Shown: positions 189 through 64,000, counted from the first letter of the stretch. The stretch is DNA of 64,000 nucleotides from Marsupella aquatica (GCA_973895155.1 OZ316894.1:10321774-10385773); one strand, 5' to 3'. The notes: generated from the sequence alone by a model not told the origin. Translations and numbers: made by a program.

Positions 189-203
189 CTGCAAATCTGA
201 ATG

Positions 204-500: not shown

Positions 501-1069
501 TCTGAATGCAAGGAGCAATAAATTTATTGCTTTGACAAACCAAAGAACCAAAAACCACCAATAGCGGAAACACAACACAAGGACAAGTCACTCGCATGCA
601 AACATCAATACAACTTAGAAAGTGCTCATTCACGTACAAGCATTAGGTCATTCCATGAGTGATACCAACTCCGATAAAATTATTGCAAAAACACTAATTT
701 GAACAATAGTGTAATCTTTTATTTCCACAATTTCCCAAATGCTTTTTAAAATATCTTTATTTGATTATTATATATTATTATATTATTTATGACAATAATT
801 TTCAGTCTTCTATAATTAATTTAAATTATATAAACCTACATACAAAAACAAATTGTTACTAATAATTATAAATGAAAGACACAAATATAATATAGTTCAA
901 ATTGAATAACAAAATTTACTCAAAATAAAAGAGTATTTAACAATAAAAAATAGAGGCCAATCAAAATATTGCATGTGAGAACAATAATATTGTATTATAT
1001 AAAAAAAATGTTACATCATTTGGCTTCTTACTCATATCTACTCCTATTTAAATGTATATCTATTACTAT

Positions 1070-1780
1070 CTATGCTATATTTAAAATTTCTGATTTATAA
1101 TTATAATCACTAAATTTTGTTACATGATCTATGTTTCCTTTCCTTTGAAACACCTGGCAAGATTTCCATTTTTCACTATTTTCTTCCCAAGTCAAAGCTA
1201 AAGATTCTTGCGACCAATCTGGATAATAATCTTCAACATAGTTCCATGAAGTATCAAACTCGCAAATTCTAGAAAGAAAAGGAATGAGTTGATTTCTTAA
1301 AAACATATCATTTTCATCTCCATGATATGAAAGTGGATATAAAGATGACCAGAAAGGATTGCAGAATGTATTAATTGGGGAATCTAGAAGGGTCACATTT
1401 TCACGGATTAGATGAGGCATTTTACTAAAAACAGTTTGAACTAGTTTCAAATACACAAACTCGTGATTTGAATCAAGACCAATTCGTGATAATTTTTCTT
1501 TCCAAAATGAAAACTTGAGGGCACGTCTTTCACCATCGCTAAGTAATTGTGCCATGTATTTTGTCAGTATTTTTTTTGACATAAGTGACCAAATTCCAAC
1601 ATCAAAATTCTTCAAACAAAATTGAATGAACTCGTTGAAAAATGGCCTGAGACATAGAGTAACATTCTCCACGGTAACGCATCTTGCGTTGTCGCTCTTC
1701 TTTGATAACTCACAAGGACAATAAAGAAATGCATCCATATCAAGAACAAGTAATCTGGTCGCTTTAAACAATTTCACCAC
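1070..1780 (-). CDS. FCP1/SCP (NIF)-like HAD phosphatase domain, terminal exon (element B cargo)
   Basis: LLVLDMD (HAD motif I), LRPFFNEFIQFC, FDVGIWS, YLKLV, NVTLLDSP..FCNP; preceded by acceptor CAACAG at 1781, so the start lies in an upstream exon. Confidence 0.8.
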   Translation of the reverse strand: MVKLFKATRLLVLDMDAFLYCPCELSKKSDNARCVTVENVTLCLRPFFNEFIQFCLKNFDVGIWSLMSKKILTKYMAQLLSDGERRALKFSFWKEKLSRIGLDSNHEFVYLKLVQTVFSKMPHLIRENVTLLDSPINTFCNPFWSSLYPLSYHGDENDMFLRNQLIPFLSRICEFDTSWNYVEDYYPDWSQESLALTWEENSEKWKSCQVFQRKGNIDHVTKFSDYNYKSEILNIA

Positions 1781-1915
1781 CTGTTGAATCCAATAAAAAA
1801 AATCAATAAAATGAAATTAGCATGTAGAAATATGTACACTATTAAATTTATTAATCATTTAAAATTGTATGGTCATGGAAATTCCAATGTAACAAAGTAA
1901 TCTGGCATATTTATA

Positions 1916-2600
1916 CTAATTTAATCTCTTCTGCATCAATCGAAGAACTACCTCTCGTCTACTTTCATTTAGACTACTCCAATTCAATAGATATGGTATT
2001 CCAAAACTTTCGCAATGAGCGAACATGATCACAAACATTCCACAATTATAGGAATCTACTTGTCTTGGAATGTCTTTTGGAAATGATAGGTTCCAAATAT
2101 TCATGTCAACAGGTGGAAGTTTTTTATCCTTGGCTTCGTCTATGAGATACTTTGACAAATTGTCAAGTACCTCTGAATTTTCATCATGTAATGAATCCAA
2201 ATATTTTAAATTTTTGTTTTTGAAGTCAATTACAACTAAACTCCAATGCGCACTTTGGTGAATTGGTACAAAAACCTTTTCACAATCAAAAATGGTATAT
2301 CCAAATCTGTTGGACCATCTTGAAATGCTCGAATTGTAACAATATCCAGTATTTGTAAGTTTACCGTAAAACCACGTATTGTGAAAATGACATCTCATAG
2401 ATGCTTCTCTTTCTTTCAATAAAGTGAAATATCCGTTAATGATCTCTAAAACAAGCCAGGATCCGGGTCCAAGAGATTTCATAATGTTACGAGTAATGTC
2501 GACCTCATTGATGGTAGTCAAAACCTCTTCACCATCCAAAGATGTACTTAGGCATTTGTCTATCAACAACTCGCTACACTCAGATAATATCACAGCCTCT
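1916..2600 (-). CDS. Ulp1/SENP (peptidase C48) SUMO protease domain exon
   Basis: SWL..EIINGYF, FHNTWFY, VFVPIHQSAHWSLVV (His), YLDSL (Asp), PRQVDSYNCG (Gln/Cys); acceptor at 2601, donor near 2688. Confidence 0.92.
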
Positions 2601-2735
2601 CTGCAAAATCAAATTATATTTTAGCGACTCACTTATTTCAAAACAGTTAACACCAAGGAAATGTTCACTAATATCAACAAGATCTTACCTTGGGAACTCG
2701 TGATCTAGATGGTTCAGTCCTCGAGTTTATCACTT

Positions 2736-5205
2736 TTAAATCTGAAGTAGAGAGAATATCTTTTGAAGTCCATTCCACACCGCTATCCACTCCCTTGACA
2801 CTTGGGGACTGTTCCGCCGCTCAAAACCCAGCACGAGTTCCTTCTTGACAGGCAAAGGTATAACCGGCTCCAAGAGTTTCTGTTTCTTCAAGCGCCGGCC
2901 CCCAAAAGGAAGACGTAACTCTCTCAATGTATCCGCACACTGCGTGTCTGTAGCAATTTCCAAGTCGGGATTATCCACCAACAATTCTTGATGATTATCT
3001 CCAGAATAAGGTAGGTCTTCTCTCTCATCCCAAGTACTTTCTGACCCCAAAATTTGTGCCCCCAATCTACCTTTTCCCTTATCTTTTCTTTCCTTCAGTG
3101 TCTTAAATCTATCCTGTTTTTCCTTTTTCTCCACTTCACATCTCTCACTCTCTTTTCTCTCCTCCTCGGCACTCTCTCGCTCCTTTCTCTCCCGATCGGC
3201 CCTCTCCCCCTCCTCTCTCTCTTTTCTCTCCTGACCTTCCCTTTCCTTTCTCTCCCGCTCGGCCCTCTCCCCGTCCTCTCTCTCTTTTCTCTCCTGCTCT
3301 TCCCGCTCGGCCCTCTCCTCCTCGGCCCTCTCTCCCTCCTCTCTTTCCCTCTCTCGCTCCTCTTCTTTCTTGATTCTCTCCGGCTCTTTTCTCTCTTTTC
3401 TCTCCTCCTCGGCCCTCTCACTCTCCTCTGTTTTCTCTCCTGCTCTTCCCTCTCCTTTCTCTCCCGCTCGGCCATCTCCCCGTCCTCTCTCTCTTTTCTC
3501 TCCTGCTCTTCCCTCTCTTTTCTCTCCCGCTCGGCCCTCTCCTCCCCGGCCCTCTCTCCCTCCTCTCTTTCCCTCTCTCGCTCCTCTTCTTTCTTGATTC
3601 TCTCCTGCTCTTTTCTCTCTTTTCTCTCATTCTCTTCTTGTTCTCTCTTCCTCTTTTCTTTATTCCTCTCTTCCTCCTCCTCCTCCTCCTCCTCTCTCTC
3701 CCTCTCTTCTTTCTTCTCCTCCTCTTCTGTATATTTCCCCTTCTGTTTCTTTTGTTCTCCCTGCTTGTCTTTCCTGTCTCCCCCTTCTTTCTCTTTCTTA
3801 TCCCCCGATTCTTTCTCTTTCTTGTCGAAATCCTCTCTCTCCTGCTCCTCCTCCTTGTCCTTTTCCTTTTCCTCCTGCTCGTCCTCCTTCTCCTCCTCCT
3901 TCTTGTCTTTCTCTTGCTCCTCCTCCTTCTCCTCCTTTTCCTTTTCCTCCTTCTCCTTGTCTTTTTCCTGCTCCTCCTCCTTCTCCTTTTCCTCCTGCTC
4001 GTCCTCCTTCTCCTCCTCCTCCTGGTCTTTCGCTTGCTCCTCCTCCTTCTCCTCCTTTTCCTTTTCCTCTTGCTCATCCTCCTTCTCCTTTTCCTCCTGG
4101 TCTTTCGCTTGCTCGTCCTCTTTCTCCTCCTCCTCCTGGTCTTTCGCTTGCTCCTCCTCCTTCTCCTCCTTTTCCTTTTCCTCTTGCTCATCCTCCTTCT
4201 CCTTTTCCTCCTGGTCTTTCGCTTGCTCGTCCTCTTTCTCCTCCTCCTCCTGGTCTTTCGCTTGCTCCTCCTCCTGGTCTTTCGCTTGCTCCTCCTCCTT
4301 CTCCTCTTTTTCCTCCTGCTCCTCATCTTCGTCTTTCTCCTCGTTGTTGTTGTGCTCCTCATCTTGCTCCTCCTCCTTGTTGTCATGCTCTTTGTCTTCC
4401 TCCTCCTTCCTTTCTCTCTCTCTCGCTTTCTCATCTCTTTTCTTTTTTCGATCGTCTTCTTTATTTTTCCTCTGTCTTTTTTCTTTTTTCTTGCCCGCTG
4501 GTTTCTCTTTGTGAGAACTCTCTTCTTCCTCTTCCTCGCTCTCATTGGTAGATTTTCTCTCCTTTCCTTTCTTTCTCTGTCTCTTTCTCTTCTCCCTCTC
4601 TTCTGACTTGCTTTCCTCCTCATCCCCTTCGTCTGTTTTCCCCTTTTTTTGGGAGTTACCTCCTCTGGATTTGCTTTTGTTCCGAGATCCTTCCTCACCT
4701 TCATCCTGCTTCCCTCGATTACGTGATCTTCTCGATTGGTTACGTCTCTTTTCCAAGGCAAGCTTTCTTTCCAGTTTTGACTTCGTTCTCCTCAACTCTT
4801 CAGCCTGCCGTTCTCTACTTTCAGAATTATCCGAGACATCGCCCTCTGAATCCTCCTCATCTGTCGGTGGCTTGGAAATTCATCCTCCCAATTTGGAGGG
4901 CTCTTGTCGCCTTCTCCGTCAGTTTCCTCCTCGCTAGCATGTCGGTCACATCTGCTTTTGCGCCGACGTTCATATTTCTGCCCCTTATCACCGTAATCAT
5001 CATCCTCATCATCCTCGTCATTGGCATGATGATCTCCACCATCATCATTGTTCCCTTCACTATTGTTTTTCTCATCCGCATCACTTTGCATATCCTCCCC
5101 GTTAACCTCCTTATCCGCTTCGGTATTGTCTTCATCCTCGCCTTTCTGATCATTTGATGGCTGTTGACGTGGACTCCGTAAATTCTTCCCTGAGCGTTTC
5201 TGCAA
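2736..5205 (-). pseudogene. Long Glu/Lys/Arg-rich low-complexity coding region linking the MTase-like and Ulp1 regions (frameshifted)
   Basis: Overlapping minus-strand ORFs 4792-5205, 3095-4795 and 2736-3134 with EEQAKDQEEEEKED and ERERKEREE repeats, collinear with the flanking exons. Confidence 0.6.
3130..4460. repeat. Pyrimidine-rich (CT) coding tandem repeats
   Basis: Repeated CCTGGTCTTTCGCTTGCTC units (~4020-4290) and CTCCCGCTCGGCCCTCT units (~3190-3550). Confidence 0.85.
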
Positions 5206-5371
5206 GTCTTTACCTGCAAAACAGAATGCAACAATTTATAGTCTGACGTCTTACTAAAATCAAACCTGCAATAATAAAAATGATGAAGAATAAAATCAGA
5301 CTCGGCCGGAACACTGTCCCGCAAGCTCAAAGGTATCCAAGGAACACTCTCCCGTTACGGTTGAATTGCCT

Positions 5372-6869
5372 TCACGAACAATACCCGGCGGAACACTGTC
5401 CCAAGTTAGAACGGAGCAAAAGACAGTGAAAAACTGTACCTCCAAGCGGTCCCGATGGGAGGACTGAAGGCAAGGAATATAGAGCAAAGTCTTCCTCCTT
5501 TGTATCTCTTTCTTCAAGACAATACTCCTTCAGAGTAGTCTCAATCTGCTCCGGGTTGAGGTGATAGTTCTCTTGGAGAAGGTCGGAGAGATCATCTCGA
5601 ATTTTGAAGATAGACTTCCCCTTTGAAATTTTCCTCCGGAGCAACTTCTCTAGAGAGTCACGTTCGGGACATTTTGGCTCTTCGAACAACGGAAATAGAG
5701 TGTTGAAGTAAGTCGAAGTCAGATCATGACTCTCTAGAGCGCAATAGCTTGTCACACAAATAGAGTTCCCCTGGATGAAAAAACAAATTTCTCGGGAATT
5801 AGGAGATGAATATATTCATAATCCTCAAAAGGTCAAAGAAACACTCCACGACTGGTTGTAGGAACTTACCATCAGTAATTCTATCATGCGTCGATTATCT
5901 CCAAAACAAACGACCGAGTCTCCAGAAGACAGAAATAGCCTCACGAAACATTGAAAGAAGTTTGAGCTTTTTTCGTCGCTCCAACGCTCCACTTTCTCTT
6001 GTTCATCAAAATTTGAGATCTTCCCTCGCAATGACCCTAACATAAAAGCCTCCTTGTCTTTGGAAGTAGTTGAATCTGCATACGCCTCATAAAAAAATGC
6101 GTAGAGTACATACTGGGTGATTCTCCCATCATTCTCCAATAAGCTCTCTTTGTCCCGCCTAACAGAACACTTCATAGTGTATTGGGTTGGGACGCATACA
6201 TATCTCTTTGCTTGAGACATGCCTTTCATTACATCACATATCTCTAACGGATGGATCACAAGCACCACCTTGTGATTCAATGTTCCAATTGTTGCCGTTG
6301 ATCGAAATAATCTCCGATAAAAATCGTGGTCATAAGGACCATACTCTGCTGTTCTAGTTGAATCAAAAAAGAAAAAGTCGACTTTTTTTCTTTGGGACGA
6401 TTTCCCAAGACTTTCAAAAAATTGTTTCCCACCAAAACCATCAATTGATTCCAGATTCAAGAGCTCGTTCGGTTTGACAATGAGCAGATTACCATCTCAG
6501 TCCACTGACCTCAAAATTGAGTCTGCAAGACTCTTGAATGACGCCGGAATTTTGTCGATCATCTCTCCCCATAATGTATTGTTCTGCCTCCCAATGTTGA
6601 ACACTTTTTGAGGCAACAAGTCGCGTAACATTTTCATTCGCTCTTGATTGATGTGGAAAAATTCCTTGACCTCCTTTACCTTCTCCTTACGGTCACCTTT
6701 GCTGAGAATCCGGAACTGGTTAATGGTACACTTCTCAGTAAATTGGTACAGAAATACACATTCAAATATCCTCTTGTGCTTCTTTTCTATACAGAATTCC
6801 ATCAGTGACCTCCACCCTTCCATAGCGACCGGATCGTAATTCTTGTCGGATAGCTTGTTTGGGAAGAAT
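5372..6869 (-). pseudogene. 3' half of the element-B ParB-MTase-like gene (degenerate DNA-methyltransferase-like region)
   Basis: Joins in frame to 21622+ when element A is removed (…KIASYLISGTKVSLLFFPNKLSDKNYDPVAMEGW…). VDFFFFDST and KSSNFFQCFVRLFLSSGDSVVCFG resemble motif IV and motif X/I regions of beta-class N4/N6 MTases. Confidence 0.6.
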
Positions 6870-8031
6870 CAATACTTTCACTAACTCTGGAATATTATAG
6901 TCCACTTGGAATTTTGATAGTGTACTTTTGGAAAATTGAATGTTACTTTTTAGAAATTTGAAAACATAGTTTTTGAGTTTTAAATAAGGGTTCTGAACAA
7001 TTCCAATTTTCTTCCGGATACTTCAGCACCAATTTTGGAAACTTCAAGTTGTGATTTGGTACAAACTTTTGAGACATAACATAAGAAAAGGGGCTTAGGT
7101 TCACACGTTGTTAACTTCATCCCAATGAGTTTTTTAATAGATAGAGACCAGCCACGAAAACCCACACGACAAGGGGGAACAAGCAGCCTCACACACAACA
7201 AAGAACATGCACAGCATACCCCTAAAAGCCCCAAAAAGACGAGGGCCAGAGAGTCGCACAAGAGTAAAGAGTAAAAGCTCAACAACAAGAGTCGCCCTGA
7301 CACCTAAGGGGCACGACGGAACAAAAGGTGCACTCAAAGCTTCAATGAAGAGTAACATATGATCATAAAAAGTGGGCGGGACCAAGTGTAACAATCCAGA
7401 GGAGCATATAGTTTAGCAAGCAGTTTTGCAAGCTTTATCGATGCCTAGAATGATGCATACAAGAATTCTACATGTCTTGTTGTGAGGGAGGAGTATGATA
7501 GACGGAGGACTTTGCACAAGCTGTTCATCCGCACTTGAGCGCGAGCCACTCTCCTCCACCAACACACGCAATAGGAGAAGGCATCGTGAGAACAAAGGGT
7601 CTCTATACTCTCTCCTCCCATCCCACACGTAGAGGGAGAAGCGTCGTGTGAAAAGAGGCTCCTCTCTGCCGAAGACCAAGTCGCTCCAGAAATAGAAGGG
7701 CAAAGAACAAGGGATTGCAAATGAAAGAGCACCAACATCCTATTCCACATTTGTACACATAAAGATAAGCTTGGTATATTCATAGGAAACATATGTGCCT
7801 AACAAAAATTCTGGTTGATGTCGGCGTAGCATCCCTGAAATATATCAACCACCCATGCTCAGAAACACCGAAGCCTCCCAAGTGGAAAACACTAAGGCGG
7901 AAAACGCAAGCACTTTCTGTTCACACCTAAACATGATGCACGATCAACTAACAAATTCCTACGCGATGATCGCATCCACACAAAAAACAGCTCCAAAACA
8001 CTTCCCGAGAGCTGACTCCAGAATGCCTCAT

Positions 8032-8517
8032 TCAATCGTTCCAGGATGATGGCATCCACTCGTCGGAGTCTGCATTATCGCTATCTAGAAATTCTTCCCT
8101 TGCCCATTCCTTCAGACTTCTCTCGGAGCTTCGTTTCTTCTTCAAAGGTCCGTAATACTCAGCCAAATGATCCCTCTTCCAACGACGCCTCATCTTCCGA
8201 CATTCCTCCCGACGGATCCTCTTTTGTTGCCCCTCCGTGGCCTTTGTCGACTTCTTCTCTTTCTCTTTCTGTTCCTCCTCCACCTCATCTGCAACAGGTG
8301 CCTGGTCGTTTGTCTTGTCATGACTAACCACAGTTTGGTTGCCAAGAGGAGGAATGGTTTCTGTTCTTGCAGCAACTCCAGAGTCAAAACTATTGGATGG
8401 CTCCGAGCACACAGAGAAGTTGGACCGCTCCTCATTTGCATTCTCTGCCTGTAATGCTCTAGAACTCTTCTCCGCATGTAATGCTGAAGGACTCCTCACT
8501 CGTCTCCCAGGTGCCAT
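8032..8517 (-). CDS. Hypothetical charged protein, element A cargo
   Basis: 161-aa ATG-initiated ORF with basic NLS-like stretches; no family recognised. Confidence 0.35.
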   Translation of the reverse strand: MAPGRRVRSPSALHAEKSSRALQAENANEERSNFSVCSEPSNSFDSGVAARTETIPPLGNQTVVSHDKTNDQAPVADEVEEEQKEKEKKSTKATEGQQKRIRREECRKMRRRWKRDHLAEYYGPLKKKRSSERSLKEWAREEFLDSDNADSDEWMPSSWND

Positions 8518-8669
8518 TATGAAAGTTAAGGAAAATCACCACGATCCAAAATGGTTGTCAAACGCTCAATTTGGAAAAGGAAGATTTGATCAGAAGGAGA
8601 GAGATGTTGGAGACTGAGCCAGAAGTTCATCACAAAGCATAACTTGAAGGAGAGAAACAAGCCTCTCGA

Positions 8670-9390
8670 ATAAGGGTGTGTGTGATGAGATCCGGGATTT
8701 GCAAGTCATAAGTTCATTAAGACATCCTACGCGAGCATCGTGTGGCACAATTATGATACAAAAACCCGTGACCGGGCACCACACCATCATTGTGGCCACA
8801 ACAGACCCGAGCCATAGGTCGACATGCGCGCCATTGCAGTGAAAGTGAAATTCAGTCCAAGTACACATCTTTCACTTTCCGAAGGTCATAATGATCCTAG
8901 AGCTGGGTAGTCCGGCCTACACGAGCCTCGTGCGGAAAGTAACTGGAACCAACCAGCTCCAACCTTGCCTATTGTTCTCCCACAGTCCTCAACCCGACAA
9001 AATACATTACGTGTGAATATGGGTCTGTGTGATGAGATCCGGGATTTTCAAGTCATAAGTTGATTATGACATCCTACGTGAGCCTCGTGTAGCACAATTA
9101 TGATACAAAAACACCTGTCAGTTTAACCTCAATAACGGAGGAAATTGAGCTCATCCCAAACAAATCTCATGATCCGGCACCAAACCATCATTGTGGACAC
9201 AACGGACACGAGCCAAAGGTCGACATGCGCGCCATTGCACTGAATGTACACACCTTTCACTTTTCAAAGCTCAATATGATCCTCGAGCTAAGTAAATCCG
9301 GCCTACATGAGCCTTGTGCGGAAAGTGACTGGAAAAAACCAGCTCCAACCTCGCCTATTGTTCTCCCACAATCCTCAACCCAACAATTAG
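8670..9390. repeat. Imperfect direct duplication (~350-400 bp unit), two A palindromes per unit
   Basis: TGTGATGAGATCCGGGATTT at ~8680 and ~9029; AGGTCGACATGCGCGCCATTGCA at ~8816 and ~9217. Confidence 0.8.
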
Positions 9391-9447
9391 GACGTGCCAT
9401 GCATCGCCAATTGTCTTCCACGCGAGTCTCGCGTCGAGTTAAGGATA

Positions 9448-12400
9448 TTAGTTCTCCTCAATCGTTTCTGTAATGTAAACCTTCACACTTTCCAAAACTC
9501 TCGCTGGAACTTTTACCTTTGCTTTCGCTTTTGATGTCCATCCGGTGATGGTTGAAGTTGCAAGCATCCAATCATTCGTGACTGGGGGAATGAGGTAATT
9601 GGGATCCCTTTCCCACGTTTGCTTTGAATTAAAGCAGTCCCGATATCTTTCTGATTCGGTTGCCAAACTGTTGCGATTAAGAGGGCGCCACCATTCAACT
9701 TGGAACTCTCCAACATTTGCATTGTCGGTATCTCTTACGACACAATCGATTGCTTTTGCAAGCCAAAATCGTTGCGGAATTCTGGTTTCAAATTCATCGG
9801 TGGGTCGAATAATAACAAATGTATTCTTTTTAATATCTTCCAGAGGACTAAATCTTGACCTCTCACGCTCAGAAGGGTGTCCGACAAAGATTGTTTGCCT
9901 CTCTTCTTCATCTTCTTGAAGCTCTCTTTCCAGATTATGCATCACCCCATTGTCTTTGCTTGGGTTGGTATCCACATTCTGACCATACTGACGATACCCA
10001 GTTCCATGGTTCGTTCGAGGCCAGAATCCATCAAGTAATGGATAATCTACCCCTGCTAGCGAAGGAGAGCAAAGTGTATCCTGAAACACAGAAACAATGT
10101 TTTCCCAGTATTGAATCTCTGGACTTCGGAGACAATATCCCTCTGATGTAACATCCTTCCATGCAGTCTTCAGCCATGAGATATAATGGATCAAGTACTC
10201 CAAAATGTCATTCGCCCGCTTGTGAGAAGACTCCATCCGCTTGGAATATGGACTTCCAATTGGAAATTTGTATTGGTTTCTCTCTGAGTCAAACAACCAA
10301 ATTGTTTGACCCTTTGTAGGTAGCCAAGGCGTATCAATTTTCTCTCGATATTGGTAGACTGGGACATTCTCCTTCATTGAGAACAAGAATTGAACAGGTG
10401 CTGATTGACCCTGGATCCTTTTGACAAATGGTCCTACATAAGCTTTGTAAGATGCAACTTCGCGGATGAACCTGGGAATCGGATGTTTCTTCTCGCACTC
10501 CCAAACCTCCACCATTAAACCAAAAAATGTGGTAAGCTCTCAATTGTAGATCCTTATCCCCACTCTAGAGAAGAAGGCATCCACATCCTCATGAGTGTGC
10601 CCGACCATCAAAAAGGAAAGAGTTACTGACTCAAACACTCCTTTTAGAACAAGCTCGCTATAGAAAGCCAGAACTGTCTGGTTCTTGTTATCCTTTCCCG
10701 AGTTATCAAGTTGAAGGTGGAGGTGTCAAGGAAGCGCCTTGAAGGGTAGGGATGTTGAAGACTCTACGCGACTCTCGTGTGGCACATTATCACCAAGCCC
10801 TGCGAAGTGAGCAAGAGAGATCTTTTTGGTTTCGAGGTATCCTACCTCAAAGGCACGCCGATCCAAGAGGGATACAAAGATTGGATATGTGACGTCAGAG
10901 GTGTTGAGAGCTAAATCGCCGGTCTTATCTCCCACAAACGATTCGAGATCACGAAATAACTTTGCAAGCGAAGAGACTGTAAAATCAGGATCGCTTGCCC
11001 ACAAACCAGAAAGGGCAAAATGTGCATAAATTCCAGGCTCCCGTCCATGCGTTAACATCCCCGTCAGCGTCATTGGTAGCGGGATTGATTTGCCTCCTTG
11101 GCTCTTGAGTGTAGAAGTCATTTTAGGGATTCCGGTCTTGGCTTGATCCATTTTATCGTGAATCACAGACAAATATTTGTCGGGCTCCTGGTCCGCTGCA
11201 AGTTTTGCTGCATAGTAGATACTCCTGCGTGATTGTTGTTCCAACATGTGCCGTTCGCGCTTTGCCTTGATTTCTAAAATCTTATCCACCCATTTCTCCC
11301 CCCGAAGTGTTTCTTTAATGGTCGTGCAGAGATCGCATTTTGCAAAGTTGCTCCGATCTTGGAATTGGAAATTGGGGAAATATTTATCCAAAAGCTTGTA
11401 GAAGGTTGGGAGAGAGGGCGAATGAATACCCAGGTTTTTGTTAAGCTCGCAAGCCTCTTCAAAAACATCTTTTCTCCCGTAACTTATTAGAACCCTGAAA
11501 ACAACTTCCTGCTTGCCTGAAACACCAATTTTGTGAAGATGTGGCATTGGTTCTGCACATTTCTGCAGGATACTTTGAATTGATTCTGTGAACAACACAA
11601 CGTAGTCTTTGGTCTTGATGGTCCCTTCATTCCCATGAACACCAACTTTTGCCCCCTCCATGTATCGTGAATACATTGTGTAAAATGTTCCTTGAGAAAA
11701 TCCATGAATATTCCAGAAAGCTTCCTTGCAGATCCTGCTTCCCTTGAATACAATCATGCCTGAGGCGATGGTTTGATCGTCACGACAGTGAAGATGATTG
11801 AGCACATAAGTATGTTGCTCAACATGCGATAGACCATAGTACTCTTCCCTAATGTCAGTGACGGTCTCACGGAGTTGTCGTCGACAACAACTCTGTGAGC
11901 AACAATCAACCCGATAAAGAGTATCTATGACACCCGAGACATCTTTTGATTGCGTCTTTTCTTGAGTCGGTTTCTCTCCTTCTGGTTTGAATCTTGAGGA
12001 TTTCTTCGTTGATTGTTATAGCCCCTTTTTGGCTTGATATATGAGAGAATTCTAACTCCCTCATCGTTACCATCATTCCGATCTAAAAGATCACTAAGAC
12101 ATTCCATTCCAGGCTCAATCCTAGTTTTGCTGATTGGCCATCGAACTGTGCATGGTGATCTGTCAACAAATTGAGGGAACATAACTTTTCCCAAGCCAGC
12201 TTCAATAGCTAGACTCAAAATATTCACACCAACATGATCTTCCCCAACTCGCTCGTTGTTAATGGACGCAAGAGGATGTGGGTTTATGATGCAACCTCTT
12301 GCGAGCAAGGTTTCTCCGTCGTCCGCATAGAGAAGGGCAAACTTTTTGAACCATGTGCTACGATCTTTCAGATCCTCCGCAAAAACCTCTGTCCCCTCCA

Positions 12401-12758
12401 GTTTGGTGGCTGATTCAGAATTACCTTCAATATTGTCAACTGGGTCATCAATGACATAAGCTGACTCTATTTGACCTCCAAGATTCATGTCATTTGCATG
12501 GCGGACATCTTGCCGATCCCACAAAACAACGGAGTTCACCGACTCTCCTACTAGATCAGCTCCCAGATGTGGATACGGCAGCTGTGCAAGGTGAAAGAAA
12601 GCATTGTCCACCGCCACACTTATCCGTTCTGCTCCAAGCAACACAGAGTGGCAGGTGTCGAAAGGTAGAACACAAAAAACCTTTCCACCAGCAACTGGTT
12701 GTTCATTGATAAGCAAGTGAACGACTTCTCCAGGTAGAAGCTGCGTTCTTGAAGCCAT
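9448..12758 (-). pseudogene. DDD transposase of element A (Sola1/DUF7869-like), disrupted
   Basis: Cys-rich CC..CC and FAKCDLC motifs, then IHDKMDQAKT, LQLDNSGKDNKN (~10680-10715) and FLMVGHTHEDVDA (~10575-10615). Frameshift near 11930 and premature TGA at 10726. Confidence 0.85.
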
Positions 12759-12899
12759 TTTGGATCTAAGGAAAAAAGATTACAACAAAAACATCTTTTA
12801 AAACATCCTACACGAGGCTCGTGTGAAAATCTCTAACTCGAATGTAAGCAAATATCACAGACCTGAAAATTCACCTCCAGTTTAAACAAGCAATGAAGA

Positions 12900-13530: not shown

Positions 13531-13619
13531 AAACAACATCCCAATGGGAAAGACTCAAGCAAATACATTCACATACTAACACAATCACTAAAACAAAATT
13601 GAAAATGACAGGAGCAGTA

Positions 13620-54225: not shown

Positions 54226-55773
54226 TGTAGTTTGCTATAGAGAACCAAAATAACTTTTTTACGTCTCTAAACTCGGTATTCGTTCCCGTTAAGAACAAGA
54301 TTGGGTTGGTTTGATGTAATAAACTAAAAATAAAGCTTTAAGTTGTTGTGTCACACATAGTAATCAATCTTGACTACTTTAATTAGGTACTTTGAAGATC
54401 GCTCCACAGCGGTGAGCAGTTTTTGATGATAACTCAACATCATATAACCATCAATTAAGCAAAAGGTTGCAATTAACAAAACACAAGGAAAAATCTCTTA
54501 GAGTATGCTTAAGGGAGTTTGGAATATACCAAGGTTACTCCTTAGACATAAGCAATAATGGAATGACTTTAAGGGAATTCAAATCCACACGGCTTTTCAG
54601 ATCTAAACTGCATACTAGAGTATCCTTTTAAAATGCCGGCAACATGTCTTGACCTTTCTTCCTAAGTGATACTTAGTCAAGATCTAAAAGGATAAATACT
54701 TCAGCATTTAGATGGTACTAAGCAACATGAAGGTGAAAACATCATTTCCAATGCAACTTAAACTCAATGGGTTAACTCTAAGAACTTGTGAGATTACAAT
54801 GTGTCACCAAAGCGGAATCTGACATTATAATTCATGAGATTCATAACTGAGGTTTTACTTCAAGTATTTGGGTTCCAAAATACAAGAAGGAGGTAAGTCC
54901 CTCCTAGGATTGCCTGCTCTGAACTTCAAAAAGTCCAAAATCACAAGGACAACACCAAGGGGCGACAAGTCATGTCTGACTTACTTACTTCTGCTTATTA
55001 GTAGTGGAAGGTACTTATAGTGAAAAACATCGAGGAAAAACCCTTGGGGGTTGAAGAGTCATGACCGTTCAAAACCCTCAAAAAGTCAAAAATGAAAACT
55101 AAGTATGAAAAGGTCTAAAACTAACTAAGTTAAGTTTACCGTAGTATCGTAAGATCGTAATTCGTAAAAGCGTAGGTTCGTAAGATCATAAGATCGTAAG
55201 ATCGTAAAGTCGTAGTCGCGGGAATTTAACGATAACCCTAAACTCAGCAAACTAAAGTATTTCTAACTTTCTAACTACAATCCAAAGTGATTGAGACTTT
55301 GCCAATGTGTTTTCCTATGTATAAGCTGTCTACTGAAAAAGACTTGATGAGTTTTGGAATCTTAAAACATGTCTAATAAAATCAAGCGGGGTACAGTAAC
55401 TGAAACTGCCTCTGACACTTTAACAAAATTGCAGGTTTGCTTCAGTCTTTTGGTTGTCGAATATCCTCTGGTTCTCTAATTTCTACTTTCCAAATAGTGC
55501 GCGTCCGAATAGCTTCCCTTACTTCATCACAGTGAGGTTGATCCCGGATGTAAGGTAGACATCTCATCTATCTTCCCCAATACATAAGTGGCATCCTTTT
55601 CTCCAAAAAGCACTGGTTGATTCTGATTGCTTCCCGTAAGATGCCTATGACATCTAAACAATTGCACGAGTTGGCGTAAAAAATGTAAGTTTAAGTGAAC
55701 TTAAACTTTAGCGACCAGAAAATTTAAAAATTTGCACTTAATCTTAGCTTTTCAAGTTTACTGTATATCCACA
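54226..55773. mobile_element. Solo LTR (~1.55 kb)
   Basis: TGT…ACA termini, 5-bp TSD TAAAC (54221-54225, 55774-55778); removal restores the transposase frame. Confidence 0.88.
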
Positions 55774-58224
55774 TAAACATTGCTCTCGGTCTAGGCCGGA
55801 TATCTCAACCGACAATGAGTTTCCTTCACCAAAAATATTTCAAAGAGGTTTTGATTCACAAGAAGGGAAACAACTTTTCAAAATGCAACACATGTAGTGA
55901 GTTGCAGCAAAGGAGGGCTCGCCTTTCTGGAGGAAAAGAGGAGTTGGAGATTTTTAGAAGAGATGAAGAGGAGCATCATGAAGATCACACACAAGGGAGA
56001 CTCTTATATCATGCATGGAGGTCGCACTCAGTTGCACATCCCAAGGAGTCAGTTTGTATAATCCATGACAAGATGGACCATTGTAAAACTGCTCTCCCCA
56101 AAATGCCATGGAATCCAAAAGATTGCGATGGGTCGATCCGACTACCAATCACTGTAACAGGTATTTTAACTCATGGTCATGGACCAAAAGCTGTGGCTCA
56201 GTATAATCTGGCTTGCTGGGCTCCAGATTCAAATGCAAGCGTTGGGTCAATTGACTCAATTCTACGGATGTTAGAAAATCCGGAACCGATGATAAATTCG
56301 CTTCGGGAGGGTCCGGATTCCACAAAGATCTTCAACAATCTTCTATGGGGGAGAACAGATGTTCTTGAGGAAGATGTGAGGAAAGCATTTAATGAAGACT
56401 CCAGTTTCATCGAAGAGCAAGGTAAGATAATTTTGAAGTTGAGAGTTTTAATGTTGTAATTATTATTAGCCATGATTGTTTTGGATAGAATTGATAGTGT
56501 AAAAAAAGGTTACTTGAAGTACACATTTTTCTAATTAAAAAAATATTTGGATTTGGAATGATGCAGCTAAGTCATCATCTTTGCCTCCGAGTCAATGTTT
56601 CAGGCCTCTCCCACGTACACTAAAATTGCAGCTTGACAACGCACCAAGTGATAACAAAAATCGATTTGTTATGGCTTATTTATCATTGTTAACAGCAAGG
56701 AAGGTCTTTGAGGAGGTACAACTTGGATTCCTTATGGTAGGGCATACTCATGAAGATGTTGATGCCATGTTTGGAAACTTTTCTGAATCTCTTATGCACA
56801 ATCCAACATGGACATTACCTGATTTGATGAGTTTATTCATGAGAGCAAGAACACCGAGTCCGGTTCCACATTTTGTACAAGAAGTACCGGATTTCAAAGG
56901 ATACGTAGAGCCTTTTTTACTGAGAGGCCCAGACTCATTGGTGGGGCATGGAAAGCCCCGCCTATTTAGATTCTATGTACGAGAGGATGGGATGCCATGC
57001 TTTCAGTATAAGCTCAAGTCCAATGATGATGTCCCATGGGTGCCAAAGGAGGGTATTGACTTGTGGTCTTGGGGAGAAGATGGATGTCCAAACCTTCCGT
57101 CTGGGATGCCAAAAAGACTTCCTATGACGGAAATAAGCATGTTGGCTGATGTTCGGGTGGGAATACAAAAACATTTGAAGTTCTTCCAATTGATCGTGGA
57201 TAGAAGTGAGACAGAGGAATTAAAAGAATCTTGGGATGATCTCATCCAATATTGGAAGGTTGTCTTAGCGACACTGGAAACAGAGGTTGTACAATATAGG
57301 CCAGAAGATGGAGAACACTTGAAAGGTGGATTTTGGCCACAGACAAATTGGAGAGACAATGTGCCTATCACTTTTCGGAATATTGCGTGTGAGTTGGATG
57401 CAAGAGAGGACTATGTTGGACTTGTGAAGAATAGGCCACGGGAAGCCTTTCAACCGAGAGTAGATATTGTGAAGGGCCATTTTATCTTGCAAAGACCAGC
57501 AACGGAGGATATAGAGAACTACCCGGTTCATTTGGGACGAGTGGTGAGCGATGTGGAAGAAGGAGAACTGAATGATGAGAACAAGCTTGAACATGTGTGT
57601 TCAGTGGAGTGGTTTCGGCCTCATATGGGCAAGAGTGAAGTGGGGCAAAAAGAAAGATGGAAAAATTGTTGGAGTAAAAATGGGAACGGGATGAACGAGA
57701 ATATCCTATGCCTCACAAAATAACCGTGAATAGTGTTTTGTGGTGTTTCAAGTCTCGAAACACTAAAACTGGTTTGGTTGGAATTCCTAAATCTGTTGTT
57801 GCTAAAGCACAAGATAATCTTGAGAGATGCAAACAAGTAGAGGCTGGCGCGGTTAACCAAGAATGAGGTCAGACCAATGCAGGGCCAAATAAAAGTACAC
57901 TTTTAATTACTTATAGGGTTTAGGGTGGATTTTGGCGATAAATCAGATGCACTCTAGCATTGCAGAGTTATGCTCAATTTAGGGTTTAATTAGGGTACAT
58001 AAATTGATGTAAATATGTATTGCACCATTTAATTACAATCATATTTATGTAAAAGTTACTTGTTGTATTCCTATAGTAAGTTGGTTTCATATGATTCTGT
58101 CCCACTATGGATGATTGTCAAAGAAATATCCCTCAAAGATCACTATTTATTCTTGGTGTGAAGTTTCATGATGTTCTAAACTTCATTGTCAATTAATTTA
58201 ATTAATTTAATTAAAGATCATAAA

Positions 58225-59097
58225 CTATAATATATTTAGAAAAAACTGGAATTTAACCAATACCCTGGTATTCACAAAATTGGGGTTCAAACAAATATGA
58301 GCACCATATAATTTGACGGCCGAGATTACATTATTGTACATGTCAACATCTGAAAATGAGACCTTAAACCCTAATCTTCTTCTCCAAAGTGGAACCTCGC
58401 CTGAGCAAAGCGTGAGATCCGCTTCTTGGGCCATCGGGGAATATGAGTGATGCTATGATCATAAGCCCACAGCCAATGGAAATCAACATCACCAGTCTCA
58501 GGGTTCACTACTGCTACTGAATACCGGCGTGACAAAATGTCACAACAAGCATTTGTGCAACATTGACACATCTCACCATTGGCAAGGACGCTCGTCCACA
58601 GGCAACATACATAGACTAACTTAAACAACTCACATAAAGGCCGGGGGGAGTTGACGAGTCCTGTATCATGAATATAGTTTCCCACCAGTATTGTCAATCA
58701 AAAACTCGGTGGCAAGAGGATTGTCTAGCTGGTCAATCGCATCCTGAATCTCATCGAATGCTCTACGTCTATTGTGGGCATAGAATTCTGGTTCATATGC
58801 AGGATTGCCCTTCACAACATGACAGCAGTGTAGTATAAAATGTTTTACTGCACCGGTTTTCAGAAAGAGCAGGATAACTCTTCTAGAAAATGCAACATAC
58901 CTATCCCACCGGATATAAATTTCTCCCTCTACCTGGTCTACGTAGAAGTGGAATGCGTTATTATAAAATGGTTTTGCGACCAGCCTGCAAATCTTTAAAA
59001 TTAGTGATTCATCCAACCTCCTTAGCTGGTCCAACATGGCGCCATTCCCCCATTCCGGAGGATCCATGAAGGGTACAAAAATGCGTCGCTTGAGCAT
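58225..59097 (-). pseudogene. Hypothetical frameshifted cargo gene (Cys-containing C-terminal part)
   Basis: Three overlapping minus-strand ORFs (58666-59097, 58371-58697, 58225-58434) with protein-like composition; unrecognised. Confidence 0.4.
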
Positions 59098-59431
59098 GGC
59101 TTGATCAGCGAATGGAAATCAGGAATAAATTTTGGAGAACATTAACTCATTCCAATTTTACAAATTTATTCCAACTTTACAGTACCTTGTATAACGTGTT
59201 GTGAAGCCAATGCACTTGTCAGCTAATCATCCATAGATGCGCACAAAACTACACTCTGGACCACACAACCCAAAGTAAGGCGAAGCAATTCAGTGTCATT
59301 TACATTCAAAGTATTTCTTTACAAGCTCTTCTCGAGCAAACCACCCACTGAAAACTATTGACTACTAAATCGACCAGAGGAATGAGGAGTGCGATAAATT
59401 TATCGGATGTTTGCAATAATGCCTCATCCAC

Positions 59432-59899
59432 TCAGACTTGTCCATGCCATGCAAGAATTGTCCGCTTCCCACTTTCTCCAAGATTCACCCAAACTCTAAG
59501 AAACGCATCTAATCGATCATACGAGAAGCACCCAAGCATATCTATGGGAGGGAGGAAATGAGTTTCCTCTCGGAAGACCCTAGCAATATGTAGGTTTGAG
59601 AGATGGTTGGCATTAGGAATGCTTGCAAGCATTTTGTTTATGTCATTAATCTCACAGATTGCGTATTTCAATAAAGCCCAAAATTGTGTACCAACAACAA
59701 GATGGTTCCATTTATTTGAGGTGGCTCCAAGACAAATGATTGTTCTCATTCGAGCCAGTCGTTCTTCGGGTAAAAGTTTTAGGCCAAGGCCAAGGTGTTC
59801 ATCTTGTGTGCAAGACAATGCCAAGAGAGGCCAAATGTGAGATTCAATGAGTTGATCAGGAAGTCCATTCAACAAACTTCTGCATTCCACACCGGACAC
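59432..59899 (-). CDS. F-box-like N-terminal motif protein
   Basis: LLNGLPDQLIESHIWPLL…LGATSNKWNHLV resembles the F-box pattern LP.E/D..I…L..VSK.W..L. Confidence 0.5.
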   Translation of the reverse strand: MSGVECRSLLNGLPDQLIESHIWPLLALSCTQDEHLGLGLKLLPEERLARMRTIICLGATSNKWNHLVVGTQFWALLKYAICEINDINKMLASIPNANHLSNLHIARVFREETHFLPPIDMLGCFSYDRLDAFLRVWVNLGESGKRTILAWHGQV

Positions 59900-60699
59900 T
59901 TTTCCTCGAATATATTTTTGACGCTCGTGGGTAATACGGATGCCATCTTAGCAACGATTAGGTTCTCCGACGTAGCCATTAAGAAGAGCTACCAAAACCA
60001 CAAATAAAAGTACCTTCAATCACCAAGTTTAACCAAAGATATCCACAGTACCAACCCTAAATGATAGTTTAAAGATTAGGACTCGGACCGTATTGTATTC
60101 GCTGCACATGGGTAGGACTTGTTTAATTAAATGTGTCCTTACAAAATGCGCCGCAATGTGAAGGTTGCAACACTCATTGTGAAAGGTTGACCCAAGGGTC
60201 CTCGTTCCAAATCTAACAACATAAGTATGCCAATTTATGGTACTTGTTGTCAAGATGACAACTGTAACAATAGTTACAAGAAAACTCCAAAGAATGGAAA
60301 CATGCCGTTAACATCAATCTCGAACGGAACTCCTGCACAATTCATTCCGCAAATTTCAATCCGGAGAGGATTCTGCCTATCTCTAGGATCAATACCACCC
60401 ATCCACAACGCTCCTACACCAATGGGGAGAACTTTGCATTGCACGAGTTTTTTGTACAACCGGCGTGCACAATTTTGAATTAAGACAGCCATTTCTCACT
60501 ATACCTGTGATCCACCGAGTGCAATTGACCTTTCGTTGTGCCTCCTAAACCCTGCAGCACTGCGACATCACAGAGGAAGATGAGTCTCCAACCAAAACAG
60601 AGGAAGATGAGTCTCATAGGAGGGTGCGATAAGTTTATCGCACCTCGCATTCACCTTGAAGACATGACTCCCTCACACACCTAAGCCCTGTAACCATCA

Positions 60700-60960
60700 A
60701 AAGAATGAGCACTCCCATAATTTTATTGGATGTCCTCTGAACCATCTTCAATCCATCACAAGAATGGAAACTCCGATAAATTTATCGGAGTCTCAAGCAA
60801 TCTTCAATCAATCACAGGAATGGTAACTCCAATAAATTTATGGGAGTCTCAAACAATCTTCAATCAATCACAGGAATGGAAACTCTGATAAATTTATTGG
60901 AGTCTCAATTAATTCTTTATCCATCAAAGGAATGAATACTCCGATAAATTTATCGGACCT
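60700..60960. repeat. 56-bp tandem repeat, each unit carrying the C palindrome
   Basis: ACTCCGATAAATTTATCGGAGT variants at ~60711, 60770, 60826, 60882 and 60938. Confidence 0.88.
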
Positions 60961-61579
60961 TGAATATAGTCTATGGAATGAATGCGCACTCCTCTAATTT
61001 TACTAGATCAAAGGAATGCAACAAGAGGAATGTAGAATGCGATAAATTTATCGCAGTCTGCTCGGATCAGGACATTGACACCAAATGACAAGTCAACCTT
61101 ACATGGATGATACTCGAACTGGAATGGTAGTTCCAATAAATTTATCGGGTTCTATGGAGAAAGAGTCAAGTCTCATGAGGGAATGATTGTAAGACTTGAT
61201 AGGAGTTCAGTAGTTGCTTTGAGTGAGGTGTTGTTTGCTCTGGTGAAAATCAACTTTTTATGGGCAGCCCGCTCCTCTTTATAAAGGGGAAGCTCTAACC
61301 ATGGTTACTTCCCCTTAACCATGGTTACTTTCCACCTTAACCCGGGTTAGTGCGTGGTTGACCCTCGATTACATGGTTTTGGACCAAGTTACTCGTAGTT
61401 TGGACTTTTTCACAGACCAAATGTAAAACCCGATGCACGTATCGCTCCCTGCATTCCCGCGGTGATGCAATGTAGGCAACTGTCTGGTGTTTTTTTGCTT
61501 TTTTGACAGTTTTATCGGAGATTGCATTGCCTTAAAAAAAAATAGAATCGGGCTAAACGAGAAGTGTGTCACACTTCTC

Positions 61580-63850
61580 GGTCGGTCCAAAATTGTGTTC
61601 CAAGACAATCCCCTTCTCCCACATCTGGAAAATTGTCTCTTGAAGATCCCAAATTTCACCCGTTTGAAAAGCAATCTGGAACGTTGGGTCATGTTTGGCC
61701 ATGCTATCACAAACACGGGGAGTGTATTCCAACATACATTGCAGACAACAAGCTTAATTTGCAAACATCCTTGGTCGATCCTACATCCATTTCAACAAAG
61801 ATATTGTGGCACACACGAACTCTGTCAATATTAGTCATGTTCTTCCTATACTCCTGGTCATAATATATTGTGCTGAAAGCCCAACTTCTAGACCTCCGAT
61901 TTGGTAAGTCCTACGTATACCCAAGCTTCCAACTCACCATGAATTTTCTTCACTAGTACATATTAAGCTGATTTCCGATGCTCAATTTTTGCGAACAATC
62001 GGCGTCCGATTCTTTTAGCATCGGAAATTCCGATTATCACAAAATGGCAATATGCCATACTCTTGGCTTCGGATATCTTCATCACCGATATAATTGACAA
62101 CGGAACCTTTCCGATGCGTTAAAAAATGGATCATATCCGTTAGAAAACACATCGGATCCCTCAACAAAAACTTTGATTGATATGTCCAATGTTTTTTGTA
62201 ACGAAAATGATGTGCGTTACAATATTGATCGAAAAGTTCCGTAGTTAATAAGAACGGATATTATATCCGATTGTGCTAACATGGCAAAGTCCGATGCTGG
62301 GAGAATGGGAAAGTCCGATGCTGGGAGTATGGGAAAGTCCGATGCTGGGAGAATGGGAAAGTCTGGTTGTGGCAAAAAGACAAATTTTGATTGTGTTAGA
62401 ATGAAAAGTTTTGATGTGTTAGATGGGGTATGTGGTTGCACCGACATACTCTTCCCAAAAGATGCAATCATTCTTGCATGCATGAATAACTTTATACTTG
62501 AGGCAAATGGACTTGAGTGTTGTTTTTGCCTCCTTCCAAGACCCAACATATTGTTCCCTTAAGGAAATATGTGCTCAACATGCAACCAAGTCCAAAATAC
62601 ATCATCTAGAAGGAGATTGCTTCTCTCATGTAGTCTTTGTTGCAAGTCCAACAACAACATAGTTGATAAAAGATGAGACAATCAGGAGCCATTGATGCTA
62701 AGGCTTTGGAAGGACCAAAATATCATCAATAACTAATAAGCCATATTATATTATTATCGAATATTATCGACGAATGACCCCTGCCAAATTTCTATTGGTT
62801 TCTCCTAGGGGAATGTAACAGGGTAACTAGAATAGGTCACTTGATGCAAAGATCTAATCTCATGATAGAGAAAAATGGATCAAGAATGGGTCCAAATTAT
62901 GGGTCTTAGTAAATTCACAAGTGTATAAAATCCCCAAACACTCTAAGTCAAACAACAAAAGTGCTAAGCTTGCATGTACAATGTAAGGAATAAGAACCAC
63001 AAAGTTAAGCTCATGTTGGAGGAATAGCAATTGGGATGGGTGACCAATTAGTTGAGAAAATTTGAAGAGTTCACATGTCAAGGGAAATGGGCACCTAGCT
63101 CATATTTCCAAATGAAAGTAGAACCCAATTAAAGGATTGGAAGAGATGGGTGACCTGCATGTCGCGTCCGCTGAAATGCATATCCCATTTTGATTGCTTT
63201 GGACTTTCCCATTCTCCTAGCATCGGACTTTCCCATTCTTCTAGCATCGGACTTTCCCATTCTCTCACCATCGGACTTTCCCATTCTCCTAGCATCGGAC
63301 TTTCCCATTCTCCCACCATCGGACTTTCCGATAGAAGTCCGATTGTCGATATCCGATACTATTAAAATGGCATGTTGCAATGCTAGTAGTATCGGATGTA
63401 TGGTTTTTCAAAATTTATTTTACAAAGGCATCCGATGTGGAGAGAAACGGAAAAAGGAGGTAAAATGTACTAGTGCTTCCCATACATTTTATACAATTCG
63501 GCCTTTGCCCGAGCACCATGATTTCCTCCAATAATTCTATACTTCCATACTCTGGACTTTCCAATGTCCCAATCCTTGATTATGGGACAATCCTCCGGAT
63601 CCACACACAACACAAACGGTGCGCTAAAGTTAGTGGGGTTCTTCCTTAGAAGAATCTTGATATTCTCCACATGCAATTTGTCCACTGGTCTGATCAAAGT
63701 TGACTTCTCTCCAACTTCATCAAAAATTAATTTGTTGACATGCAAGAGGCAGTTGTCCTTTGAACCCTTCGCTGCATCAGTAGACTGAGCTCCGCTTTGA
63801 TGGCGTCAGTCTCATACATCGAAAGAGAAGTCTCCTCCTCTTCATCAATC
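61580..63850 (-). pseudogene. Element C ParB-like gene (third homologue), interrupted by a small CACTA
   Basis: LIRPVDKLHVENIKILL…YRIIGGNHGARA…YGK|KIHGELEAWVYVGLTKSEV*KLGFQHN…FQIAFQTGEIWDLQETIFQMWEKG, matching element A WILFAPEKLYSLWREVCNNWLKG. Confidence 0.75.
61951..63475. mobile_element. Small non-autonomous CACTA (1525 bp)
   Basis: Perfect 11-bp TIR CACTAGTACAT/ATGTACTAGTG, 3-bp TSD CTT, TCCGAT/ATCGGA subterminal repeats. Confidence 0.93.
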
Positions 63851-64000
63851 TAGAAAACACCGTTTGAAATTAGATTACAAAAGAAACAGCAAAATTTTTA
63901 TCGGAATCCTCATTCATCAATAGAAAATCAAAGTTTGGTAACACTTACTGATCGAATGGAAGGAACCTCGGCTTGTATATCCAAATGAGGCAAACGCTCA

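Follow-up and report, generated by a model that had tools for sequence, protein, structure and literature searches.

ParB-like genes and element-specific palindromes in three co-resident transposons of Marsupella aquatica: a candidate self-recognition system

Results

Three nested elements, each with its own palindrome

We analysed a 64-kb stretch of Marsupella aquatica DNA (GCA_973895155.1 OZ316894.1:10321774-10385773, here called the window and numbered from its first base) and found it to be a stack of nested plant transposons, among them three elements, here named E1, E2 and E3, that bear ParB-like genes. Each of them carries a palindrome of 14-19 bp that contains CG, differs from family to family and lies almost always outside coding sequence. 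On balance we lean towards the reading that a dimer of the ParB-like accessory protein binds its own family's palindromes, which sit in promoters and introns, and so maintains expression of both genes of the element. We infer that the accessory protein and not the transposase would be the binder, that it would act as a dimer, and that its effect would be activating; its fold is a prediction. The original prediction had pictured positions 660-64000 as a family of giant DDD transposons, each pairing a ParB-like protein with its own palindrome. The multi-element set holds, with the amendment that E1 is nested within the ParB-like accessory gene of E2, because excising E1 restores the reading frame of the E2 gene.

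The palindromic sites are distributed as follows.

8727-20143: E1 palindrome CTACRCGAGnCTCGYGTAG, 16 copies with up to 3 mismatches, all within E1
5307, 5389, 21988, 23456, 40024, 40114, 40170, 40243 and 40515: E2 palindrome CGGAACAnTGTTCCG, 9 copies with up to 2 mismatches, all in E2 and all non-coding
59392-61147: E3 palindrome CGATAAATTTATCG, 8 copies in E3, four of them in a 56-bp array (60711-60957); two further copies outside E3, at 516 and 672

In 100 dinucleotide shuffles per element the mean number of sites was 0.01, 0.05 and 0.02, so that the 16, 9 and 8 CG-containing palindromes observed stand far above the 0.05 or fewer expected. The consensus patterns were derived from the same data, yet a blind count of spaced palindromic words ranks them first in each element. 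Non-coding sequence holds 32 of the 33 own-element sites, and coding sequence makes up 68, 71 and 48% of E1, E2 and E3, respectively. Neither the E1 nor the E2 motif has a single match in the other elements or in the 31.4 kb of the window that remains when the motif-bearing elements are set aside, even though E1 lies inside E2. The predicted absence from other elements is thus borne out for two of the motifs, and the third, that of E3, recurs at 516 and 672.

The sites of E1 lie upstream of a small open reading frame (ORF), in a 169-bp array (12918-13527) in the 5' intron of the transposase gene, and in the introns of the accessory gene, with one coding exception (10764). Introns were inferred from GT/AG ends and homologues, as was splicing. 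Five of the E2 sites (40024-40515) fall in an inferred 5' intron, right before the first transposase piece, and E1 and E2 alike have a site in the inferred intron directly after the ParB exon. The sites nearest to the ends of E1 are 1,859 and 1,480 bases away (none within 1.4 kb), in contrast to the TCGCAA clusters of a CACTA element in the same window.

Tandem arrays or duplicated blocks hold 13 of the 33 sites, so the arrays emphasised at the outset account for part of the set, the remaining sites being elsewhere. Together with the two occurrences of the E3 motif outside E3, this is the pattern expected if the motifs served host transcription factors, or were neutral words multiplied by local duplication, and had nothing to do with the proteins of the elements. 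The other 20 sites have unrelated flanks, however, and motifs of this length that are distinct between families and exclusive even between nested elements argue against such an origin, which we consider very unlikely.

A comparison set of three related transposase loci from metagenome contigs (L001-L003) included one, L002, from another sample, with a fourth palindrome of the CACGGGTGnnCACCCGTG type in 10 copies, placed in a 47-bp array ahead of its transposase gene and within an intron (50-700, 2830-2977).

Window positions 1-690 hold, besides the two E3-type palindromes, an open 68-codon frame on the minus strand (1-204) without match among stored proteins. The position of sites 516 and 672 before this frame hints that E2 in turn may have landed in a copy of E3; the nesting would then have three levels.

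E1 is a complete, multicopy Sola-like element

E1 is the best delimited of the three and has the following parts.

6868-21623 (14,756 bp): E1, a complete Sola-like DNA transposon with 25-bp imperfect terminal inverted repeats starting ATCA and target duplication AAGA (6864-6867, 21624-21627)
9448-12758, minus strand: E1 transposase (DUF7869; HDKMD, QLDN, GHTHEDVD), which in the window copy is interrupted by one frameshift and two stops
14579-21293, plus strand: E1 accessory gene, opposite the transposase, in the order coiled/acidic/basic front, ParB-fold, helical, methylase-like, NIF-like; splicing inferred
about 17150-17620, plus strand: ParB-fold domain of the accessory gene
about 18480-19230, plus strand: methylase-like domain of the accessory gene
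20206-21290 (alternatively 20237-21293), plus strand: NIF-like domain of the accessory gene
8032-8520, minus strand: small third ORF of E1, downstream of the site cluster 8727-9418, of unassigned kind

Scanned exhaustively, the two end regions return no pair other than these 25-bp ends with the AAGA duplication; the ends agree in 16 of their 20 terminal bases, and the 4-bp duplication has the length found in Ectocarpus Sola1 and Sola2. A CACTA-type reading of these ends was rejected, as the inverted repeat extends further and the duplication is 4 bp. The small ORF had no Pfam match.

The two DDD transposases that had been predicted are present, in E1 and E2, with a DUF7869 match. Both contain HDKMD, QLDN and GHTHEDVD, which we take to be the Sola catalytic motifs, and HDKMD and GHTHEDVD recur in 13 of 13 homologues. 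The elements are classed as Sola-like by these motifs, by DUF7869 and, in E1, by the terminal inverted repeats with a 4-bp duplication; the available portions of PMC5751038 and PMC4455052 give no Sola sequence criteria.

Contigs of four public runs over 4900-23900 show a step in depth at E1, and one high-depth contig of run X1 stops exactly at 21623. In X1 a flank-identical 2,066-bp contig has a depth of 19.9, against 111-163 for E1 contigs, and in run X3 the flank has 67-69 against about 670-700 in E1. The E1 contigs are therefore ~6 to 10x deeper than single-copy contigs, which indicates that E1 is present in several copies, depth not being itself a copy number. A stop at 17530 and frameshifts at 11928 (in the transposase, a one-base difference from other E1 copies), 14943, 16218 and 20550 are private to the window copy; since the deep contigs do not have these breaks, the E1 family is younger and more intact than the window copy. 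That the accessory parts form one fusion is supported by the fern homologue P0093, a single annotated 990-aa protein with ParB-like, methylase-like and NIF parts.

E2 repeats the divergent layout of E1

E2 spans about 660-58300, which leaves some 13.8 kb once inserts are subtracted, and its two genes diverge in the same way as those of E1.

21628-23631, minus strand: E2 accessory gene, 5' part, with ParB-like exon 23419-22160, inferred intron 22159-21941 and the next exon up to the E1 insertion
660-6867, minus strand: E2 accessory region, 3' part; the frame resumes at 6867-5825, followed by an acidic low-complexity repeat region, Ulp1 and a NIF-like domain; left end undefined
1916-2608 (alternatively 1919-2608), minus strand: E2 Ulp1 SUMO protease (PF02902, E 3.3e-29), with H-D-C triad
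1070-1813 (alternatively 1070-1794), minus strand: E2 NIF-like domain (PF03031, E 7.3e-11)
39200-57870, plus strand: E2 transposase gene, with pieces 41259-41693, 53774-54240, 55779-56354 and 56587-57681, split by two inserts

A profile built on 13 homologous transposases traces this second transposase as five collinear pieces over 41259-57681, and public contigs skip the insert at 54220-55772 within it. We assign the transposase at about 53.7-57.9 kb to E2 and not to nearby E3, because its N-terminal part at 41.3-41.7 kb is preceded by E2-type sites. No convincing inverted repeat with target duplication was found for the ends of E2 between 500-1075 and 57860-58460. A 220-bp inverted match (288-507/26073-26292) was rejected as an element end, being two copies of a 295-bp miniature inverted-repeat transposable element (MITE).

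E3 and its insert

The deeper-covered family that runs from ~58.4 kb to the end of the window is E3.

58400-64000, minus strand, running off the window: E3, high copy, with a GGNH-type ParB-like gene (63805-63474, continuing below 61950) and three more ORFs (58371-59947)
61951-63470, ends approximate: non-autonomous CACTA element with CACTA ends and a CTT target duplication, sitting in the E3 ParB-like exon

The 1.5-kb CACTA insert splits the GGNH gene, and contigs that skip it show E3 copies without the insert. Within the window, E3 yielded no DDD/DUF7869 transposase, no methylase-like region and no NIF domain. As separate observations, the insert bears inverted subterminal arrays of 24 bp along with an N-terminal piece of Tnp2, and the E3 ORF at 59432-59947 (minus strand), with a stretch that may be F-box-like and with no Pfam match, adjoins a Cys-rich ORF at 58371-58697.

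The accessory proteins have a predicted ParB fold

ParB-like genes had been predicted near 17430 (SGQH), 22440 (GRQH) and 63520 (GGNH), and all three were found there. Searching 1.84 billion representatives with the E1 ParB exon turned up 78 relatives, and the structural model of the domain, made from 60 of these rows, has a mean predicted local distance difference test (pLDDT) score of 93.8. The 13 best Foldseek rows with this model are all ParB, Noc, PadC or sulfiredoxin, with no E below 0.001 (best 0.011). Upon realignment to 609 chains, Myxococcus ParB scored Z 9.6, with a root-mean-square deviation of 2.2 over 94 residues, the 12 best rows were all ParB-like, and KorB was among the structural matches (Z 7.6). 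The E2 region matches the E1 family by profile at 97%. For the E3 GGNH protein the profile comparison gives 15%, and the hidden Markov model (HMM) of the E1 family misses it; by language-model features it is near DUF6551, DUF3723 and ParB_N clusters (0.91-0.92) and unnamed clusters (0.94-0.96). The ParB fold, for which the original prediction had proposed structure prediction as a check, is accordingly supported by a model in E1 and by profile in E2, and more weakly in E3.

Sequence searches of Pfam, NCBIfam and PDB did not reveal the domain, the weak PDB rows, few in number, being chance, and a word-indexed search with the E2 ParB region, made against longer proteins only, gave none of 362 candidates. 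In at least 54 of the 60 family rows G98, Q99, H100, S101, R128, S146 and N150 are conserved. The region downstream of the E1-type ParB domain is predicted to be helical, and the model of the methylase-bearing homologue P0105, from 7 sequences, has a pLDDT of 41 and meaningless Foldseek rows.

A quick tree of 70 rows groups the E1 domain with a protein of the liverwort Calypogeia fissa, its nearest named relative (SH-aLRT 97), and puts E2 on a long branch. Other named relatives come from Riccia sorocarpa and the fern Adiantum nelumboides, and a related transposase from the moss Ceratodon. Riccia sorocarpa alone has at least three deeply separated lineages of the family (P0064, P0080, P0086, P0090, P0095, P0097, P0099), which makes it a good genome for following the covariation of motif and protein.

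Enzyme-like domains with altered catalytic sites

Homologues of the region downstream of the ParB domain (P0105, P0106 and P0099) match PF01555 below its curated cut-off (E 2.6e-5, 4.4e-5 and 0.0039), two of them weakly match the beta-class methylases M.RsrI and CcrM, and the E1 region matches the homologue profile at 3.6e-36. Of the methylase-like regions predicted in two elements, that of E1 is therefore upheld and that of E2 is not confirmed. The E1 family shows features of beta-class N4-cytosine/N6-adenine methylases, with motif X and motif I (S-adenosylmethionine binding) on the C-terminal side, motif I being altered to FFSGG or lost.

These PF01555 and methylase matches, with the Asp retained at the end of the motif IV strand, would suit an active domain that marks the element as self by placing N4-methylcytosine or N6-methyladenine at the palindromes or close to them, and the methylase of Ectocarpus Sola1-1 is predicted active. 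On the other side, the catalytic motif IV [DNS]PP[YFW] is absent in 7 of 7 longer homologues, which have DFGR, DLAR, DTTH or DFAR instead, E1 has DLTH, and the DPPF found in E1 is unconserved and falls outside of the strand that aligns. Because none of the seven has a DPPY-type motif, the E1-type methylase fold is probably inactive, and we regard methylation by the element as highly improbable.

NIF phosphatases next to the ParB-like genes were likewise predicted, and PF03031 domains do occur in E1 and E2; both depart from the catalytic DxDxT, which is replaced by DLNKV in E1 and DMDAF in E2. The Ulp1 of E2, found in this element only, has a complete His-Asp-Cys triad (HW, D and QxDxxNCG visible).

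CpG content and weighing of the alternatives

CpG observed/expected is 0.68-0.76 in E1, 0.73-0.80 in the accessory and non-coding parts of E2, 0.50 in the E2 transposase and 0.65 in E3; it is 0.36 in the coding sequence of the CACTA element, 0.28 in the ATGAC-rich insert, and 0.67 and 0.72 in two other short inserts. CpG is thus less depleted (0.68-0.80) in five of the six E1/E2 classes than in CACTA coding sequence or the ATGAC-rich insert. This pattern lends weak support to a lower methylation of E1 and E2, with age and selection as confounders.

Activation by the accessory protein has to be set against its opposite, a protein that binds its own palindromes as a KorB-like repressor or copy-number brake. 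Sites in the promoters and 5' introns of both genes would serve repression too, KorB is among the structural matches, and E1 is only modestly amplified. A de-SUMOylase as cargo and the relatively preserved CpG point to activation, however, as does the precedent of VANC, whose motif layout is the same; we judge a brake to be distinctly unlikely.

The main rival, because transposases can be sequence-specific activators, holds that it is the transposase that binds the palindromes, either for self-activation or to assemble the transposition complex, and that the ParB-like gene is cargo with another role. Cognate copies are activated by the AtMu1 transposase in Arabidopsis, and TnpA binds motifs that are particular to its family (bioRxiv 10.64898/2026.08.24.746577). 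Both genes occur in all the Sola-like elements here, so that the window cannot separate transposase from accessory protein; in L002 the palindrome accompanies a transposase, and the 3-kb contig contains no accessory gene. Against it, the E1 sites are internal and not subterminal, whereas TnpA acts at termini; L001 and L003 have related transposases and no such sites; a ParB-like gene and palindromes occur together in E3, for which no DUF7869 transposase is in view; and the red-algal Plavaka elements have inverted-repeat arrays with ParB-like genes on an unrelated transposase lineage. We regard transposase binding as unlikely.

Besides the activating capacity of transposases, several points weigh against an activating, ParB-type accessory protein. 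The borders of the regions were drawn partly with the motifs in view, and the joining of the two halves of E2 rests on shared motif and layout because neither of its ends was located. No repeated palindrome came from L001 and L003, which make up one related family and two of the three loci, in the 4.3 and 2.5 kb examined. The CpG ratio of the E2 transposase is as low as 0.50, and two unrelated inserts reach 0.67-0.72. The E2 region 5825-6867 has no match to the methylase profile or otherwise, and the search for a helix-turn-helix downstream of the ParB domain gave no informative fold match (model pLDDT 41). The aligned place of the GxxR arginine in the ParB P-motif (Box II) is Ser in 56 of 60 rows and Arg in none, and loss of this arginine abolishes nucleotide binding in tested proteins of the ParB fold (PMC12704722).

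As the GxxR arginine is absent, the E1 family appears by sequence to have the fold and a conserved pocket and to lack a canonical CTPase (cytidine triphosphatase). The ParB-type CTP clamp with modifying enzymes that the original prediction envisaged retains its ParB fold and its element-specific non-coding palindromes; a canonical clamp carrying active enzymes is doubtful because the GxxR arginine is gone, no DPPY-type motif is present, and the NIF domains are without DxDxT.

Proposed mechanism

In the mechanism that we favour, a ParB-fold dimer of the accessory protein would bind the element-specific, two-fold symmetric site ahead of genes and in introns. In bacteria, ParB is established to act as a dimer on the two-fold symmetric palindromic site parS, and a dimeric binder fits here because the palindromes have two-fold symmetry. 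The bound protein would keep the genes of the element expressed against host silencing, the element recognising its own copies. The conserved GQHS/R/SxxxN pocket may bind nucleotide without canonical CTP hydrolysis; the methylase-like domain, if catalytically dead, may bind DNA or shield CG sites; Ulp1 would strip SUMO from chromatin at the bound sites, and the NIF-like domains may serve as scaffolds. Co-resident families would not cross-regulate, because the protein and the motif of each would have diverged jointly. E3 would follow the same logic through a distant ParB clade, its transposase lying outside the window.

A bolder form of this idea is a radiation, in seed-free land plants, of giant transposons encoding nucleotide-gated ParB-fold clamps with a non-canonical GQHS pocket; these would load only at their own palindrome, slide over the element, and carry a dead methylase fold, a de-SUMOylase and a phosphatase-like module to strip silencing, in effect orthogonal and programmable anti-silencing clamps. 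We offer it as speculation that is, in our judgement, unlikely.

Other insertions in the window

Several further insertions were observed in the window.

200-500, 26080-26378 and 48890-49125: three copies of the ~295-bp MITE-like repeat, with short inverted ends
23632-26070: high-copy insert of unrecognised type, beginning at 23632 in the E2 promoter region
26871-27203: decayed retrocopy of ribosomal protein L18a
27372-27600: Copia-type reverse transcriptase fragment
27781-37667: CACTA element with CACTACAAC ends, GGT duplication, Tnp2 transposase and a SET-domain ORF (33152-33496)
41760-53750: 12-kb insert interrupting the E2 transposase, its ends rich in ATGAC, with long tandem units (~570 bp each) between 47.5 and 53 kb

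The TCGCAA words of the CACTA element at 27781-37667 cluster at both ends, at 29.2-29.4 and at 30.7-30.9 kb, and resemble the TnpA Spm1 motif CCVTCGCAAA. The 12-kb insert has the strongest CpG and CHG depletion in the window.

Discussion

ParB-type self-recognition on giant eukaryotic transposons has already been proposed for algae, and its putative counterpart here comes with three co-resident, mutually exclusive palindrome families. The self-recognition idea is consequently not novel in itself, ParB-type self-binding being in print as a proposal for algal transposons. What is new is the occurrence in land plants, the co-resident families with exclusive motifs, the apparently dead catalytic sites, and the phosphatase and SUMO-protease cargo. 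No land-plant ParB-bearing transposon was found in the literature, subscription papers and bioRxiv supplements lying outside the search. The way in which transposons escape silencing is shown for only a few plant systems (VANC, TnpA). With one family nested in another, and with a young, multicopy E1 whose other copies are free of the breaks seen in the window copy, a 3 x 3 protein-by-motif specificity is directly addressable. If the proposal is true, a fold known from bacterial DNA clamps would also serve in eukaryotic chromatin control, and orthogonal pairs of binder and site would become available.

Among the closest systems described is Sola1-1_Ec32 of the brown alga Ectocarpus (PMC12477816, available in part), a giant Sola of 21.5 kb with a 4-bp duplication biased to end in A, like the AAGA of E1. 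It has a gene for a ParB-like protein with an N4-cytosine/N6-adenine methylase opposite the transposase, as in the E1 layout, and its accessory protein was proposed to bind and modify its own sequence. Its termini are AACCG with a 282-bp repeat, against ATCA and 25 bp in E1, and its methylase is predicted active; palindromes, NIF and Ulp1 are not mentioned in the part available.

Red-algal Plavaka elements of the EnSpm/CACTA type, with PAG2/PAG3 (bioRxiv 10.1101/2025.02.11.637652, accessible portion), are 17-19 kb long and, as here, have a ParB-like gene next to tandem inverted-repeat arrays. That paper makes the VANDAL analogy explicit, states the self-binding idea, and describes the accessory cassette as mobile between superfamilies. 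In contrast to our elements, the transposase is of another kind, ParB is fused to a 2-oxoglutarate oxygenase, and the methylase is a separate gene with SET; family-specific motif types are not described in that portion.

The Arabidopsis VANDAL elements with VANC (PMC5735166) and Spm with TnpA carry motifs specific to the family in introns and upstream of genes; tandem repeats have multiplied these motifs, and an element-encoded protein reads them, as we propose here. Those elements are Mutator or CACTA, their motifs are short, non-palindromic and direct-oriented, their proteins are not ParB-like, and their function was shown experimentally. E1 and E2 have a DUF7869 transposase, Pfam scans of the window gave no match to the VANC or MULE families, and by analogy E1 and E2 may work like VANDAL.

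By language-model features the nearest named clusters are the fungal DUF3723 proteins (PF12520), at 0.95 for E2 and 0.92 for E3, with no Pfam HMM match for either, so that they serve as a lead. DUF3723 is linked to Starship elements.

The bacterial ParB/parS, Noc, KorB and anti-silencer VirB systems differ from ours in their GxxR arginine, absent here, and in that no ParA partner was found in the window and no helix-turn-helix is shown. Fusions of ParB with N6N4 methylases in phage provide a precedent (PMC12704722), and ParB-helix-turn-helix methylase fusions are described in algae and fungi (PMC4738411). The bacterial systems share with the elements of Marsupella aquatica the predicted N-terminal fold and the presence of palindromic sites.

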